In this document: positions 18,716-36,928 of the stretch, one piece after another
How positions within the stretch are numbered: position 1 is the stretch's first letter
How the letters are laid out: every line of letters starts with the position of its first letter
Program-made: the position numbers and the translations under genes
From: Candidatus Bathyarchaeota archaeon
GTDB lineage: Archaea; Thermoproteota; Bathyarchaeia; Bathyarchaeales; Bathycorpusculaceae
DNA length: 64,000 nucleotides
Reading direction: 5' to 3'
Assembly: GCA_963777155.1 (NCBI GenBank)
Contig: CAVZPM010000009.1
Location: 64,001 to 128,000 of the forward strand
Notes under the pieces: generated by a model
The model's database searches: none
The model's input: the letters and a program-made list of their open reading frames with translations, nothing else
What the model was told of the DNA's origin: nothing

Positions 18716-19741
18716 TCACTCCACCTTAGACATCGTCTTTTGTTTTCTTTTATAATACTGCAACGGGTGATAAATCCGGCGGCACAGTTCATCCCGGTTT
18801 CTACATACGCTATGTGTTTGCAAAACTGAGCATTGGGGGCATATGTACTTTGTTCCTGACCCGCGTTCACCTGCTATGTGCTCAATTTGGTAGCGGGTTA
18901 AACGTTCGTTGTAATCTGAGAAGGTTCTAAACATGTCGTTTAACCCCTCAGGAGTCATCCCAATGTTCACTAGAAACGATGTTAAGGTGAAACGTCCGAT
19001 GTGGGAGAGATGATGGGCTTGGGCGGCATCTGCATAGAGCGCATTTATACATGGTGGAAAAGCCGCTTGGACAACAACTTTGGGCATTTCCTCGATTTCT
19101 TGGCCCATTATTTCCTGCGCCAACTTCAATAACGCTTCAGCGATCAAAGTAATTTCTTTGGGAAGATTTCTTATTTCTGAAACATCAAGCCTTTTCTCTA
19201 CCCGATCCTTTACTTCCTCCTGAAGCAGACGAACAACCTTATCTTTATTTAGATAAACCATGCCCTTATCCATGATTTGGTTAACAAGCTTCCATTCAGA
19301 ACCATGCATGTGAGCAGCATTTTTCAAGTAAAAATTAAAACCTACACGAAAATCCTTGCCCACAATTCCCTCACAAATGTCCCAATCAAAGTCTCGGGCA
19401 ATAGCGGAAATTTTTCCTTTACTTTCACCAAGCAATTGTCCATGTGTTGTTTTTGCAACAGCTAAAGCATATCTTTTTTTTATCCATGAATTCTTAGTCG
19501 CTATAACCAAAATTAGTGCTGCCGCAAAAGAGGAAATTTCAGCCCTTCTATCCCTAACTGCTTCTCCAGTATTAACTTCCAAGATTGCTTTTTCTACGCG
19601 TTCTTGGGCACGGTTAAAAACTGGCTCTTCTGAAGACAAGGTCCCAATCGTAAATTGAAGTTCTTCTATCTGTTTGGATGCTTGTTTTAAAAAAGGGTAT
19701 TTGGCAAAATCTTCAGAAGATAATGCCGATTCCATCTGCAA
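18716..19741 (-). CDS. priL: DNA primase large subunit PriL
   Basis: AKYPF, FPPCI, HLSHIGRF, YQIEHIAG, YICPQC....C Fe-S domain. Confidence 0.95.
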   Translation of the reverse strand: MQMESALSSEDFAKYPFLKQASKQIEELQFTIGTLSSEEPVFNRAQERVEKAILEVNTGEAVRDRRAEISSFAAALILVIATKNSWIKKRYALAVAKTTHGQLLGESKGKISAIARDFDWDICEGIVGKDFRVGFNFYLKNAAHMHGSEWKLVNQIMDKGMVYLNKDKVVRLLQEEVKDRVEKRLDVSEIRNLPKEITLIAEALLKLAQEIMGQEIEEMPKVVVQAAFPPCINALYADAAQAHHLSHIGRFTLTSFLVNIGMTPEGLNDMFRTFSDYNERLTRYQIEHIAGERGSGTKYICPQCSVLQTHSVCRNRDELCRRIYHPLQYYKRKQKTMSKVE

Positions 19742-19750
19742 TTGGCGTCA

Positions 19751-20506
19751 TTACTCGGTTTCGATTCTTGGCGCCAAGAAGAAAGTTAACTTTCCCTCTT
19801 TTGTCTGCTGGAAGTCTATTCTCACGGGCATGTCGGAGGAGAACTCGAGGGTTGCGATGTCTGAGGTTGCTGAAGCTGCTTTTATTATTTCGGAGAGGTA
19901 GCTTAAGCTGAATGTTGCCTTAGCTTTCTCTTTAACTTCCAAATCGAGCAGTGCGTCGTTGCCTTTCTGCAAAGTGATGGTTGCACCCATTAAGTCGCCT
20001 GAAGCGCTGAGCGTCAGTTTTTCTGGCTCCGCCTCAATCTTAACGTGGTCGCTTACGAGCTGAGCGTCTTCGATTGCTTGGCTTAACCCTTGGGTTGTGG
20101 TTTTAGCTTTAACGTTGAAGCTTATTTTTGGAGTGGGAACTTCTTCTTCGGAGGCTTCAAGTGTTGGCATCGTAAAGTTTCTGCTGTACTTGCCAGTTAT
20201 CGCTACTAGTAATCGTCCTGTTTTGTCGTCAAGGGCAAGTTCAACGGCTTCTTCTTTGCCTGCACGTTTGAGGAGTTTTAGAAGCTCGCTTATGTTGAGA
20301 CAGATTTTTGTTGGCTCGGTGCAGATGAATTCTTGGAAGATGGATTTTGGCCATTCAAAATCAATCATGGCGACGCGTGATGGGTCCATTGCGCGGAGTT
20401 TTAAGCCTTCAAGGTCGATTTTAAAAGTTGCTTCGTCAACTAGAATTGAGATGGCGGTTGCCATGTCTCTTAGGAGTTTTGCGTCAGACACTTTAAGCTT
20501 GAACAT
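19751..20506 (-). CDS. pcn: DNA polymerase sliding clamp PCNA
   Basis: RAMDPSRVAMID, FSLSYL, C-terminal FFLAPRIE. Confidence 0.97.
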   Translation of the reverse strand: MFKLKVSDAKLLRDMATAISILVDEATFKIDLEGLKLRAMDPSRVAMIDFEWPKSIFQEFICTEPTKICLNISELLKLLKRAGKEEAVELALDDKTGRLLVAITGKYSRNFTMPTLEASEEEVPTPKISFNVKAKTTTQGLSQAIEDAQLVSDHVKIEAEPEKLTLSASGDLMGATITLQKGNDALLDLEVKEKAKATFSLSYLSEIIKAASATSDIATLEFSSDMPVRIDFQQTKEGKLTFFLAPRIETE

Positions 20507-20614
20507 ATAACTCTTCCTCGTTCTAATGCATACAGGTCAGTTATATTAGTTTATCATTACACTCTTTGTTTATAAATTTGCCCTAATAAAACTTGCAAAC
20601 ATGTGCTTAAGCTG

Positions 20615-20853
20615 AAACAATTTTGCCTTACACTTCAGTTGGGTATCCGACATCGCGGGTAAATTCATAGTTTACGTAACCTTCTTGCTGGATTAAATGT
20701 TTACTACGGATCAGCTGCTGCGAATTCTTTCATGTTAACGAAACAACGGAGGCAATTTGGCAATACTTCGTACCCGCAATCGCAGGTCTTCTAGTTGCAA
20801 TAATCGTCATTGGCTTAGTATTAGCGCTATTGATAATGAAAAAACGAGCATAA
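20615..20853 (+). pseudogene. frameshifted 3' remnant of a membrane-anchored surface protein
   Basis: manual translation across frames: FSWVSDIAGKFIVYVTF / AGLNVYYGSAAANSF / VNETTEAIWQYFVPAIAGLLVAIIVIGLVLALLIMKKRA* (TM helix plus basic tail), then a T-rich terminator; no start or upstream body. Confidence 0.6.
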
Positions 20854-21177
20854 CTCAACCCCTATTTTCTTTTTTTGTTTATTATCAGTTTTCCAAAAAC
20901 TCAAGCAACAGACTCGAATGAAAAATATTTTTGTGTTTACGAAAACTCTTTGGGCTCCTTTAATTGTTTAAGCAGCTTTAGTAGTGTTTACTTGAGTCAA
21001 ACTAAGAAACAAGAAAGCGCTGTCTCTCAAACTGTTGGTTGATGTACTTAAGGAGGATTTGGTAATAACTTCTGTGGAAAAAACTTAGCCAACGCGTTAG
21101 AAGCTGCTGGTTTTTGCTTTAAAAGTCATAAAGTATAAGAATGCGTATGTTTCTTTTATGCAAAGCTGGTTGAAATC

Positions 21178-21453
21178 GTGAACGTTCCCAAAGAAGTAAA
21201 GACTTACTGTCCAAAATGTAAAGTTCATCAAATTCACAGTGTAACCCTCTACAAGGCAGGAAAACGTCGAGCATTGGCCAGAGGCGAAAGACACCACGAA
21301 CGCGAGAAGGAAGGTTACGGCGGACAGAAATATCCTCTGCAACATGAATTCGCTAAAACAACCAAAAAACAAACCTTGCGCCTAAAATGCAAAGTTTGCA
21401 ATTACATGCGTCACAAAGACGGCATCCGCCTAAGAAAATTAGCCATACAATAA
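21178..21453 (+). CDS. rpl44e: 50S ribosomal protein L44e (eL42)
   Basis: TYCPKC..H, GYGGQKYP, AKTTKKQTLRLKC..C. Confidence 0.97.
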   Translation: MNVPKEVKTYCPKCKVHQIHSVTLYKAGKRRALARGERHHEREKEGYGGQKYPLQHEFAKTTKKQTLRLKCKVCNYMRHKDGIRLRKLAIQ

Positions 21454-21475
21454 AATTAACGGAGTTTGAAAAAAT

Positions 21476-21673
21476 ATGTCTGACTGGAACAAACTTATTC
21501 CAAAACCAAGAAGCGTCTTCCTAAGGGTTAAATGCCAAAAATGCGGCAACGAACAACTCATCTTCAGCAACGCCGTCAATAAGATAGTCTGCAATGTATG
21601 CGGAGAAACCTTGGCTGAACCTTCGGGTGGAAGAGCAAAGATTAACGGTGACGTCCAAGCAGTTCTCGAGTAA
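21476..21673 (+). CDS. rps27e: 30S ribosomal protein S27e
   Basis: PRSVFLRVKCQKCGNEQ...CNVCG..LAEPSGG. Confidence 0.97.
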   Translation: MSDWNKLIPKPRSVFLRVKCQKCGNEQLIFSNAVNKIVCNVCGETLAEPSGGRAKINGDVQAVLE

Positions 21674-21688
21674 GAGATGAATTCCCAA

Positions 21689-21745
21689 ATGGCTGAGCGT
21701 AAGCTAAAGCTGCGACGACTTGGCACTTTTAGAAGGGATAAATGA
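21689..21745 (+). pseudogene. collapsed remnant of translation initiation factor aIF2-alpha (first and last codons only)
   Basis: 18-aa mini-ORF MAERKLKLRRLGTFRRDK* fills the rps27e-nop10 slot normally held by aIF2-alpha; its stop abuts the nop10 start; identification rests on synteny and recalled terminal sequences, not an alignment. Confidence 0.65.
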
Positions 21746-21916
21746 TTGGTTTGGCAACTGCGCAAATGCGTAAACTGCGAAAAATACACTTTGAATAAAA
21801 CTAGTTGCCCCTACTGTGGTGGAGCTGTGAGAATTCCACATCCGCCCAAATTTTCTCCAGACGACAAATACCTAAAGTACCGAATGGCTATGAAAAGGAG
21901 CGCTGAAACCCAATGA
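21746..21916 (+). CDS. nop10: H/ACA RNP protein Nop10 (missed by the ORF track)
   Basis: manual translation from TTG: MVWQLRKCVNCEKYTLNKTSCPYCGGAVRIPHPPKFSPDDKYLKYRMAMKRSAETQ*; CxxC-YTL-CPxCG-HPPKFSPDDKY signature. Confidence 0.95.
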   Translation: MVWQLRKCVNCEKYTLNKTSCPYCGGAVRIPHPPKFSPDDKYLKYRMAMKRSAETQ

Positions 21917-22684
21917 AAGAAACCTACATCAAAGAATTTGTTGAAATCCAACCAAACAACCCCGTACTTATCGAAGGGTTACCCGGACTTAGGTCTTGTG
22001 GGAAAAATTGCTTTGCGATACCTAATCAAACAGCTAAAACCCAAAAAAATCGCTTATCTTTATTCACCGCACTTTCCATACTTCGTTTTGGTCAACAAGA
22101 AAGGAAACGTAAGACTTTTGCGAGGAGCATTCTACTACTATCAAAACCCCAAAGGAAACGACATAATTCTCTTCACAGGCGACAGCCAAAGTCAAACCAT
22201 AGAAGGACAATATGAAATTGCCGATCGCATGCTAGACTTCAGTGAAAAACACGGCGTTAAAACAATCGCTACCATCGGCGGCTACCGCATGGAATCCAAA
22301 GAAAAACCCAAAGTCTTCATAGCCGCCACCAGCCAAGACCTCTTACAGAAGGCAATCCAATCAGGCGCATCATTAAGTACATCAGGGAGTCCAATCGTGG
22401 GTACCGCAGGATTAATTCTTGGACTAGCTAAATTCAAGAAAATCGATGCTATTTGCCTGTTGGGTGAAACACGTGGTTATCTGCCTGATCCTTTGGCGGC
22501 TAAAAGCGTTTTGGAAGTGCTGAAGTCAACGTTTAACTTTGACTTGGACCTGGCTGGTTTGAACGAAGAGATAGCTAAAGCAGAAACGATGGTGACACGC
22601 CTACAGCAAATAGAGGAAAAACGAGCGGTGCAAGCTGAAGAAACCCGAAAGCAAGAAGACAAAAAAACAACCTACATTTCTTAA
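21913..22684 (+). CDS. PAC2-family proteasome assembly chaperone (one +1 frameshift near 21990, probably sequencing error)
   Basis: LIEGLPGL (frame 1) joins GLVGKIA...LYSPHFP...GTAGLILG...CLLGETRGYLPDP (frame 2); follows nop10. Confidence 0.88.
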
Positions 22685-32595: not shown

Positions 32596-33259
32596 TCATG
32601 CCTTACTCTTGGTTGGTTTACGTTTGATTATGCGTTTTGCGGGTTCAAACCGTTTTAGCTCGTCCTCAAGCGATTTCCTGCGAACTTCTAAAGTTATATC
32701 GCCTCGTGTGCTTTCGATGATTCTTCGGGCGATGTCTGATTTATGGCGGAGTCCGGGTACGAGCATGTAGGCTTCATCAAGTGCCAGCAGTTGAATGAAG
32801 ACTTCATCCATAATTTGGAGGCATCTTTCACCCTTCTCTACTGAACCTACTCGAAGATTATCAAGCGCCAAACGTCTATATTCACCAATAACGTCGGCTA
32901 AACCCAGCACATAATCCACAGAGGGCACATTAATTTCGGATGGTGTCACAAACCGCCCTTCCTTAACCAAGACTAAGGAAAATGTTGGCTTCCGAATACT
33001 CTTGGAATGCAGCGCTCAACATACCGCCATAGATGATTTCGGGATACTGTTTAGCTTGAGTTTGGAGACTTGCAATTTTTTCTTTTGCAATCTCAACCAT
33101 TTCTTCCGCCTCATTTAGTCTTTTTTGGTGAACAAGCAAAATAGACTGCTTCGATAGGCTTGTGGCTTTCCGCATGCTCTCATGGGTTTCTTCACGTATC
33201 TGGTTTTTCGCCATAAGCTCGATCTTTACTTCATGTATTACTGCTTCTAAAGTGGACAA
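32596..33259 (-). CDS. translin/Trax-family protein (one +1 frameshift near 32967, probably sequencing error)
   Basis: QEYSEA (upstream frame) joins YVLGLADVIGEYRR...GLRHKSD (downstream frame). Confidence 0.85.
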
Positions 33260-33319
33260 AACTGCACCTACAAGAAAGACTGTTTTGGTTGTTTATTTCA
33301 ATTTCTCAAGCTAAATAGC

Positions 33320-34637: not shown

Positions 34638-34838
34638 CGAGTTTCTGTAATGAATAGGAAAGGCGTCTTTTAAAAATCCCTCTGCCTATGAGCCGTCTGT
34701 CTGCGCGGACATGTGGTTTAACTGTTTTTCCGTCCCTTCGACGGGGCGACTGTTTAAAAGGTAAGGTTTAAAATCATCTCTTAGTTAAATCATCAGCATC
34801 AAGGATATCGGCTGTCTGTTTAGGAGTGCAGAATTGAT

Positions 34839-36928
34839 TTGAACAGAAAAATTACTACAGTTTCCATCCTATTGCTTATGGCGTTTGCTGTGGTGGCTAT
34901 GCCCCTTGAAGTTTTTGCCCAGAACACCAACCTGGGTGTATCCATTATCCAGTTATCCCCTAACACGGGAACTGGAACAGTGGGTAGCCACGTGACCCTT
35001 CAAGGAACAATCTACCAAGCAAATGGTACATACCAGGTGATACTTGGAAAAGTTGTCGTTGACAGCGGCAAAGCCCAAGGGTACTATGTTAATTCGAACT
35101 TTACTATCCCTGAACTTCCCAGCGGCTCATATTCATTAATCCTTAGAGATTTCAGTGTCAATGTTAATGCTTCCCAGTCATTTAGTGTTTCAACAGCATA
35201 CTTGATAAGTCCCAGTCAGACTTCTATTCCAAGAAGGAGCCAGCGTAAGCTTAACCGTCAGCGTAACGGGCGGTCAAACAGGAATTTCATATGGCGCAAA
35301 CGTCGCGGTTGTTTTCCCGAGTCCACTTGGCTCAATCTACACAAAAACCGTCAGTCTGGGAACCCCTAACAATAAGGGAACAGCAAGTGTGACGGTAACT
35401 TTCCCAGATAGCAGTTTTTCTCCCAGTGGTTCACTTACTGACTATGCTGGAACGTATACGGTTTACTTTAACCAGTCTCAATCTCTTGCCCAAAATACCT
35501 TCAGAGTCGGCTTTATCGATAAAAGCACATATCATCGAGGCGAAACTGTGACTGTACGGGCGACAGGTTACCAACCTAACGTGGCTGCAACTCTTACCGT
35601 AGCAAGCGTTAGTTCTGGTTCAACTCTTGATACTGCTTCTGTAACTTCTTCAGCAGAGGGTATAATCAGCACAACCTGGGTAGTTTCCTCCAGTGCTGAC
35701 GTTGGCGACTATACAATAAGGCTGTCAGCACAAACTAATTCTAAAACGTTACAGGATGCAGAAAACTTCACTGTTACGGGTTACGCAATTAATATTCGAA
35801 CAACCAACCTGGCAGGACAAATTGTCCCCGTCGTATCACTTCAAGCCAAGGATGCAGCAAGCGGCACAGTGCATAATGCGGTAAGTGACTCAAACGGTGT
35901 TGCTAACTTAAGACTTGAAAAAGGCACGAGCACAATAACCGCGTTATGGAACGGTGCTAACGTTGGAGAAAGTAACATCACAGTTAGCGGGGATGGGACC
36001 TTTACCATAAGTTGCCAGTTAATTAATTTGAAGATTAACGTCAAAAACACAGCAGGTATAGTAATGCCCTTTGTCGACTTAAACATAACCTACCAATATC
36101 AAAGTAGTAGCGGAACAAAAACAGGAAACTCCGCCGGTCAAACTGACGCTTCAGGAAGCTACACGTTAACCTCAACTCTGCCGGCAGCAAGCTATACGAT
36201 TGACGCCTCAGTTTACGGTCAAATCTTCAATGCAGGCAACAATACCGTCAGCAATCTTCCAACTTATGCAACAGCTCAGGTGTATCATTATTGCTCCAAG
36301 CGAAACCTTGACCCTAAATGTGGTTGGTTATAACCAAGAGGCAATTTCGAATGCCCGTATAGAATTAGTAGGGTTATCAAATGGCTTGTTCTATTCAGCC
36401 ACAACCGATACTAACGGTGCGGCTACGATTCAAGCTACATTTGGAATGTATCGCGCCCGAATCTATAAAGACAACATACTTGTCAACGAAACAAACTTGG
36501 AGATTTTCAGCACAAGCCACCAACAAATTCACTGCACATTGTTTGGCATCCAACTCACCGTTACTGTCGTTGACTTCTTTGGTACACCTATCTCAAATGT
36601 TAACGTGACACTAAATGGACTAGAAAGAATATCTGCCCAGACGCAAAGCAACGGAAAAGCCACTTTCAACGACATCATTGGCGGTAACATGCAAATAATA
36701 GCTCAAGCTTCAGGAATACAAGACGCTTATCAAGCGGTGACACTAACCGTTAACCAGCCTGATGCATTACAGATAAAAATCGACAAATACGTTACTATCG
36801 GCTCACTATTAATACCAGCTAGCTTGCTAATCTCAATCCTGATTGTATTGGCAGCTGTAATCGCGTTGCTCCTTGTCGAGGTTTACTGGCGAAGAAGAAC
36901 CAAACATGTATCTGCTAACGCCACCTAA
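34839..36928 (+). CDS. large secreted Ser/Thr-rich beta-sandwich repeat surface protein with C-terminal TM anchor (two +1 frameshifts near 35230 and 36281, probably sequencing errors)
   Basis: signal peptide; repeated 'TD..G' carboxypeptidase-regulatory-like modules; many N-x-S/T sequons; TM plus RRRTK tail; three ORF pieces join in frame on removing two single bases. Confidence 0.75.

Follow-up and report, generated by a model that had tools for sequence, protein, structure and literature searches.

A conserved archaeal gene cluster in Bathyarchaeia carries a 72-nt remnant of aIF2-alpha, possibly kept as a translational relay into nop10

The window analysed here is the whole stretch of 64,000 nucleotides taken from contig CAVZPM010000009.1 (positions 64,001 to 128,000) of a Candidatus Bathyarchaeota archaeon, whose assembly (GCA_963777155.1, hereafter G000) measures 2.29 Mb in 39 contigs and is 90.6% complete. 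It contains the genes rpl44e, rps27e and nop10 and a PAC2-family gene in a row (Table 1). An earlier note, made from the sequence alone, had reported that 72 bp separate rps27e from nop10 and that they hold a mini-ORF whose stop lies against the nop10 TTG. The coordinates confirm both points, the TGA and the TTG at 21746 being 0 nt apart. Read from an in-frame ATG at 21677, the same ORF has 22 codons (MNSQMAERK...), and this is the version that the earlier note had delimited.

Table 1. Coordinates of the features at and around the rps27e-nop10 junction in the window
Feature	Position	Strand	Description
rpl44e	21178..21453	+	Pfam Ribosomal_L44, E 6.9e-26; first gene of the L44e-S27e-(aIF2-alpha)-Nop10 cluster
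rps27e	21476..21673	+	Pfam Ribosomal_S27e, E 1.4e-20; stop TAA 21671-21673
Scar, remainder of the ancestral aIF2-alpha gene of the operon (copy A)	21674..21745	+	72 nt
GAGATGA, Shine-Dalgarno-like leader of the former aIF2-alpha gene	21674..21680	+	8 nt before ATG
Mini-ORF MAERKLKLRRLGTFRRDK*	21689..21745	+	ancestral ATG, 18 codons, TGA 21743-21745
Degenerate middle stretch (taaagctgcgacgacttggcac)	21705..21726	+	derived from N-terminal E-A-G-D-L codons and the deletion junction
3' remnant of aIF2-alpha (...GTFRRDK*)	21722..21745	+	21/24 positions identical to reference 777-800 of G003
SD-like AGAAGG within the 3' remnant	21731-21736	+	9 nt before nop10 TTG
nop10	21746..21916	+	Pfam Nop10p, E 2e-23, profile positions 1-50 from residue 1; TTG start
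PAC2-family gene	21913..22684	+	Pfam PAC2, E 1.5e-44; frame split in G000
PCNA	19751-20506	-	upstream of rpl44e
Primase large subunit	18716-19741	-	upstream of rpl44e

Berthon et al. (2008, Genome Biol 9:R71, PMC2643942) describe a cluster of L44E, S27E, aIF-2alpha and Nop10 (LSIN) beside PCNA/PriS/Gins. The window matches that arrangement, with PCNA and the primase large subunit upstream, the order L44e-S27e-...-Nop10-PAC2, and MCM downstream of the cluster; the suggestion in the earlier note that this is the conserved archaeal cluster found near pcna/priS/gins fits the published description. The difference from LSIN, as described there, is that the slot of aIF2-alpha is occupied only by the 72-nt scar, which leaves the series of four genes incomplete, and that the factor comes from a paralogue elsewhere. 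The position of the nop10 start is supported by the alternation of TTG (46 genomes), GTG (10) and ATG (4) at one codon across the genus, this codon having the same position in 60 of 61 genomes; the 61st, G035, is an assembly full of single-base breaks. Two further observations concern the flanks. Between the divergent PCNA and rpl44e genes lies a 670-bp gene-free stretch (20507-21177) that is indel-rich relative to the genome G056 and in which no Rfam match at gathering score was found. On the other side, the PAC2 gene of G000 has one extra base near 21988 (CCCGG[A]CTTAGG) that is absent from 10 relatives and shifts the frame of ATG 21913 to the 21938 frame, the true N-terminus being MKETYIKEF...IEGLPGLGLVGKIA, read from the ATG that overlaps the nop10 stop.

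Comparison of nop10 neighbourhoods in 61 genomes of the genus, G000 included, reveals a full aIF2-alpha gene in a spacer of 795-812 nt between rps27e and nop10 in 33 of them, and a stub of 59-299 nt in the other 28. The stubs form a graded series, with lengths of 299, 258, 231-232 (3 genomes), 178-181 (3), 155, 141-143 (2), 120 (6), 80-81 (2), 70-73 (7, including G000) and 59 nt (2). Among genomes from other families of the order, nop10 was found in 11, and in all of these it is immediately preceded by a full aIF2-alpha gene; no nop10 match was obtained in G025, a 76% complete genome of another family. Full genes of genus-mates start with MAERKPEWPEAGDLVIAT... and end with ...AGGQGTFRREK*, followed by the nop10 start, and the stubs begin with the ancestral 5' end MAERKPEWPEAGDL... 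and finish with the ancestral 3' end ...GGQGTFRREK*. When mapped onto the 800-nt full spacer of G003, every stub consists of a 5' block (reference position 1 to 30-205) fused to a 3' block (723-782 to 800), and the scar of G000 retains positions 1-30 and 777-800. A scan of named public relatives (Candidatus Bathyarchaeota/Bathyarchaeia MAGs, with two genus members named Candidatus Bathycorpusculum) yielded 19 further distinct stubs of 62-231 nt, and in a sister genus (G101) a stub of 159 nt occupies the syntenic position, which brings the set to 48 distinct stubs. A proxy tree of L44e, S27e, Nop10 and PAC2 (72 rows of 455 columns) requires a minimum of three changes to account for the stub state, two of them forced by well-supported branches, and the nesting of larger stubs among smaller ones implies many secondary deletions.

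With 18-22 codons, as opposed to about 260 residues with S1 and EIF_2_alpha domains, the scar is not itself a member of the aIF2-alpha family, and no Pfam match was found for its 22-residue ORF. What distinguishes the mini-ORF from a chance ORF is not the ORF itself; it is the homology of its flanking sequences to full genes together with the graded stubs. Both ends of the scar are homologous to the ends of the aIF2-alpha genes that relatives carry there, and the 72-bp spacer is accordingly identified, by sequence comparison, as an in-place remnant left by in-frame internal deletion of the operon gene, which we call copy A. The earlier note had proposed that nearly the whole aIF2-alpha gene was deleted, that MAERK and GTFRRDK* are its termini, and that start, stop and juxtaposition to nop10 were kept. 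The graded stubs, the matching ends of the genus-mates' full genes and the junction map bear out each of these proposals, and its suggestion to look for the scar in relatives returned homologous stubs in 47 other genomes.

One detail of that note is not supported. The stretch aaagctgcgacgacttggc had been taken for decayed K-A-G-G-L-G codons, and direct comparison of the 22-nt middle stretch with full genes remains at chance level, with scores of 8-9 for the N-terminal part, 6 for the C-terminal part and 7-8 for the best interior match. The same stretch aligned with the 81-nt stub of G053 scores 14 (18 matches, 2 gaps), and that stub reads M-A-G-R-K-L-D-W-P-E-A-G-D-L-A-L-L-R-R-D-H*. Further back in the series, the 141-nt stub of G072 retains 31 N-terminal residues, and the stubs in the clade of G000 can be ordered as 141 to 81 (-60) to 72 nt (-9), and 141 to 120 nt (-21), every step being in frame. 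Given that direct alignment is at chance, only the route through intermediates is informative, and the G053 intermediate identifies the middle stretch as a descendant of N-terminal (P)E-A-G-D-L codons joined to 3' GCACTTTT.

A Pfam EIF_2_alpha search of the whole G000 assembly detected one locus, on contig C38, which we call copy B. Its product has an S1 domain (E 1.8e-12) and an EIF_2_alpha domain (63.5 bits, and 74 bits in another search, for a cut-off of 22.8); binding to aIF2-gamma and delivery of initiator tRNA are its predicted roles. The earlier note had recommended a genome-wide search for the alpha, beta and gamma subunits, and all three were found, aIF2-beta on contig C8 and aIF2-gamma on contig C9 with an open frame of 430 codons. 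Copy B is 76-96% identical over its first ~155 residues across the genus sample, and no genus genome at least 66% complete was found to lack both aIF2-alpha copies. A lineage that initiates translation without aIF2-alpha, which that note had entertained, is ruled out.

Loss of one member of a duplicated gene pair, through reciprocal loss or paralogue displacement, is a familiar process. The distribution of the two paralogues resembles it: copy A alone occurs in 14 of the 33 genomes with a full operon gene and both copies in the other 19, and 25 of the 28 genomes with a copy A stub have copy B, the remaining three being 52, 58 and 65% complete. The present case differs in that the gene is a core initiation factor within a highly conserved archaeal cluster, and in that the lost copy leaves a structured remnant.

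The age of the duplication was addressed with two trees. In the first, a quick IQ-TREE reconstruction of 86 sequences that left out copy A of G023, of G071 and of the frame-broken G065 (missed by a motif filter), the genus copies form one clade (SH-aLRT 100) against 10 out-group families, and within it the copy B clade has a support of 99 and a stem of 0.30, and the copy A clade a support of 87. A wider sample of the family (60 genera, one genome each) contains five other genera with matches that are 78-88% identical in their first 155 residues. In four of them a B-type copy lies outside the operon; three of the four retain the syntenic copy too, and in the fourth (G101) the syntenic copy is the 159-nt stub. 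The fifth (G081, g21) has a single gene at the syntenic position, which groups with the syntenic copies. In an extended tree of 93 rows, without the second copy of G119, the B-type copies, including those of three sister genera, all fall on one side of a branch with an SH-aLRT of 100. Because the B-type copies of sister genera group with copy B of the genus, copy B is identified, from these phylogenies, as an old in-lineage duplicate that predates the genus, and neither as an import nor as a simple relocation. The alternative offered by the earlier note, that the factor had moved elsewhere, was thus right about a second locus, on C38, and wrong about how it arose: the trees point to an older duplication with subsequent loss of the operon copy.

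The 48 stubs differ widely inside and little at their ends. In 39 of them, an ATG-started ORF ends exactly at the nop10 start, abutting it or overlapping it by 1 nt; in seven, the ORF ends at the TAG of TTTTAGAAGG, 12-13 nt upstream of that start; and in two (G059 and G060) it overshoots the start of a nop10 gene that is itself intact. This count takes the 22-codon in-frame ORFs of G012, L213 and G035, not their longer off-frame ORFs. The ORFs range from 14 to 80 codons, and among 28 stubs the stop is TAA in 16, TAG in five and TGA in three, at a constant position. The 5' leader and first codons are present in all 48 stubs, and the ancestral start codon in 46; G056 and L135 use an upstream ATG instead, the old ATG of L135 having become ATA and the upstream in-frame ATG maintaining its ORF. 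Even the shortest forms (14-15 codons), which occur in two clades, retain the SD-like motif, the ATG and the stop. Conservation is mostly 70-90%, in full and stub genomes alike, over the initial 17 nt of the ORF and over the ~25 nt that lead up to nop10, and stub interiors diverge freely.

No 16S rRNA was found in the G000 assembly, and the 16S 3' end of three closed genus-mates (...GGATCACCTCCT) was used to define the anti-SD sequence. The leader GAGATGA, conserved in the stubs, matches GAGGTGA, the complement of that 3' end, at 6 of 7 positions, and the AGAAGG before the nop10 TTG matches the SD core at 5 of 6. Among 10 out-group families, a motif like AGAAGG is found in eight, and in seven the aIF2-alpha stop overlaps the nop10 ATG as TAATG. 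About 10 of 14 stub architectures are in frame (binomial P about 0.004 against p = 1/3), a value that is only rough, as the stubs are phylogenetically nested and the events are not independent. Two of the three reading frames terminate within 13 nt of the nop10 start, so a looser definition of coupling would be satisfied by chance in two thirds of deletions. An RNA element in the spacer was considered separately and rejected: the predicted fold of 21655-21765 is unremarkable, with a z of -0.28, and an Rfam search of 21000-22100 found nothing at E <= 1. The only feature returned by a gathering-score Rfam scan of the whole window was a tRNA.

The exact endings in 39 of 48 stubs, the fixed stop position, the conserved ends, the TTG starts and the TAATG overlaps of the out-groups together suggest that the scar persists as a translated relay ORF for termination-reinitiation coupling of nop10, an interpretation to which we give somewhat better than even odds. 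In G000, the upstream stop lies directly at the downstream start, as expected of a coupled pair, and the SD-like GAGATGA with the retained start, frame and stop would be consistent with translation of the upstream ORF and with dependence of nop10 on it. This organization resembles the termination-reinitiation pairs studied experimentally by Huber et al. (2023, Front Microbiol 14:1291523, PMC10666635), in that stop and start are 0 nt apart (with a 1-nt overlap in some relatives) and an SD-like motif lies inside the upstream ORF. In that study, a spacing of ~20 nt nearly abolishes termination-reinitiation and the last 15 nt of the upstream gene are enough for it; the natural stubs likewise hold at least the last ~20 nt. 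The difference is that the upstream "gene" in the window is a dead remnant devoid of protein function, and its coupling is proposed from comparative data.

We propose the following history. A duplication older than the genus gave a second aIF2-alpha gene, copy B. As copy B could serve in its place, copy A disappeared from several lineages through successive internal deletions, and what survives is the old ribosome-binding site with its ATG, the first ~5 codons, and the last ~7 codons with AGAAGG. The surviving stop sits directly against the weak TTG start of nop10, whose translation may depend, at least in part, on ribosomes that have just completed the upstream ORF. Only deletions that spare start, frame and stop would then be tolerated, leaving in the shortest forms a relay ORF of 14-22 codons. 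As an overall account, a copy A remnant, a takeover by copy B and a stub held in place by coupling to nop10 form the best explanation, with a probability of about 0.8; within it, the genome comparisons show directly that the scar is a remnant, that the deletions form a series, that a paralogue exists and that its origin is older. The fully specified version, in which copy A was whittled down independently in several lineages of Bathyarchaeia to a relay ORF of 14-22 codons selected only for the hand-over to nop10, we consider an even bet.

Some observations count against coupling. In nine of the 48 stubs the ORF terminates elsewhere than at the nop10 start; nop10 has an SD-like motif of its own, and de novo initiation may suffice; and G065 has a full-length copy A with at least three frame breaks, although PAC2 is also broken there. 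A different reading, which we regard as less likely, is neutral decay caught part-way, with a functionless ORF, ends spared by the rps27e stop and the nop10 ribosome-binding site, and an incidental frame. It would explain why the 3' 25 nt, which contain the SD-like motif of nop10, are conserved whether the gene is intact or not, why stub interiors change freely, and why the nine stubs without exact termination have no visible damage to nop10. Yet the nop10 binding site needs only the 3' part, and all 48 stubs hold the 5' leader and first codons. The persistence of the ancestral start in 46 stubs, with G056 and L135 retaining the ORF through an upstream ATG, is also unexpected under decay alone. 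So are the retention of SD, ATG and stop in the shortest forms of two clades, a proportion of in-frame outcomes above the one third expected, and a stop codon that varies in identity and not in place.

Copy B itself presents a difficulty in G000, where one extra base relative to five relatives splits the gene into parts of 155 and 102 codons. Elsewhere in the genus sample, 44 B-type genes have open frames of at least 263 codons. Among public sequencing runs, the best contain just about half the words sampled from the copy B locus (L001, contig C38). A single contig covers the site, at a depth of about 3: it comes from the RNA library X17 (record 10, 195 nt, 4 differences, 98% identical), is without base L001:1735, and reads V-L-T-K-L-N-I-P-D in frame. 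Downstream of copy B, all covering contigs in four runs are one base shorter than G000, at L001 1387 or 1390, which may be strain variation and may also hint, weakly, at extra bases in G000. The RNA-library contig and the other single-base breaks of G000 lead us to regard the copy B frameshift as probably a sequencing or assembly error, or else a rare variant, so that the organism would have a working aIF2-alpha.

It is much less probable that the frameshift is real and that G000 has only a broken or split aIF2-alpha, or one rescued by +1 recoding at CCC-TGA. The extra base is present in the assembly, the one contig covering the site is from the RNA library and none is from DNA, and the shifted frame ends in CCC TGA, a context in which +1 slippage is a recognized mechanism and where it would restore the frame with three residues changed. 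Against this stand the in-frame contig of 98% identity, the 44 open B-type genes and the other isolated single-base breaks in the assembly; moreover, past the break, the first start codon is an ATG 35 codons downstream. A working copy B with a spurious or rare base remains our preferred reading.

The quality of single bases varies among assemblies of the genus. Within 44 kb of G000, frame breaks affect a translin-family gene and, three times, a ~700-residue protein. The former, at 32605-33277 on the reverse strand, is split over two frames when compared with G012 and G035. The latter, at 34772-36925 on the forward strand, contains MG2, CarboxypepD_reg and Ig-like domains and is unbroken in G056 (717 residues) and G012 (695 residues). 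G056 and G012 differ in frame from one another in only 1-2 of 32-38 genes; in G035 (L121/L122), frame breaks occur in 12-17 of about 20 genes compared. G065 (L096) has breaks in PAC2 and in its full-length copy A (the latter with at least three), and this copy A is only a possible case of a pseudogene caught mid-decay, PAC2 of the same assembly being broken too. Some genomes of the genus are thus noisy at single bases, and apparent pseudogenes in G000 and similar assemblies need read support.

Two other explanations of the scar fare worse. That the mini-ORF encodes a functional micropeptide would agree with its retention in most genomes and is nonetheless very improbable: its interior is unconserved (KLKLRRLG and KLKGWQLS within the 72-nt group alone), its length varies from 14 to 80 codons, conservation is limited to the terminal nucleotides, and no Pfam match was found. 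A collapse during assembly that hides a full aIF2-alpha gene at this position is next to impossible, given that 47 other, independently assembled genomes have stubs there, that at least 20 of these are 70-75 nt long and homologous to the scar of G000, and that substitutions and small indels separate the scar from its nearest relatives; the preference of the earlier note for real decay over such a collapse was well founded.

L44e-S27e-aIF2alpha-Nop10 is among the most conserved gene arrangements of archaea, and here a paralogue has displaced its initiation-factor member, which was erased where it stood. None of the elements (paralogue replacement, gene remnants, stop-start coupling) is new by itself; their combination is. 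Our literature search found no title or abstract on aIF2-alpha paralogues of Bathyarchaeia or on a remnant kept as a coupling ORF, with the proviso that exceptions to LSIN may sit in supplements. The deletion series in 48 genomes, from 299 down to 59 nt, would record how operon architecture, probably through translational coupling, constrains gene loss. If this is true, it amounts to a natural deletion-mapping experiment in which coupling dictates how an operon gene may die, and it would reveal the smallest upstream ORF that termination-reinitiation requires in uncultured archaea. For annotation, such mini-ORFs are to be treated as remnants and not as new genes.

The many genomes with two aIF2-alpha paralogues raise the question of whether the copies differ in function, and the surroundings of copy B offer two observations of their own. 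In G000, a 124-residue ORF (contig C38, L001:1010-1384, minus strand) starts 14 nt after the copy B stop; no Pfam family was found for it, and an ESM Atlas look-up returned no usable match. Of 45 copy B loci, 32 have it immediately after copy B, at 58-93% identity, and it is absent from one subclade of 11 genomes, from G066, where the locus ends soon after the gene, and from G069; it may be a partner of the paralogue. Finally, G056 has copy B twice, on contigs C9 and C8, in nearly identical loci (96% and 95% identity to G000) that share their neighbours, which may represent a strain duplication in the bin, given its listed contamination of 6%.
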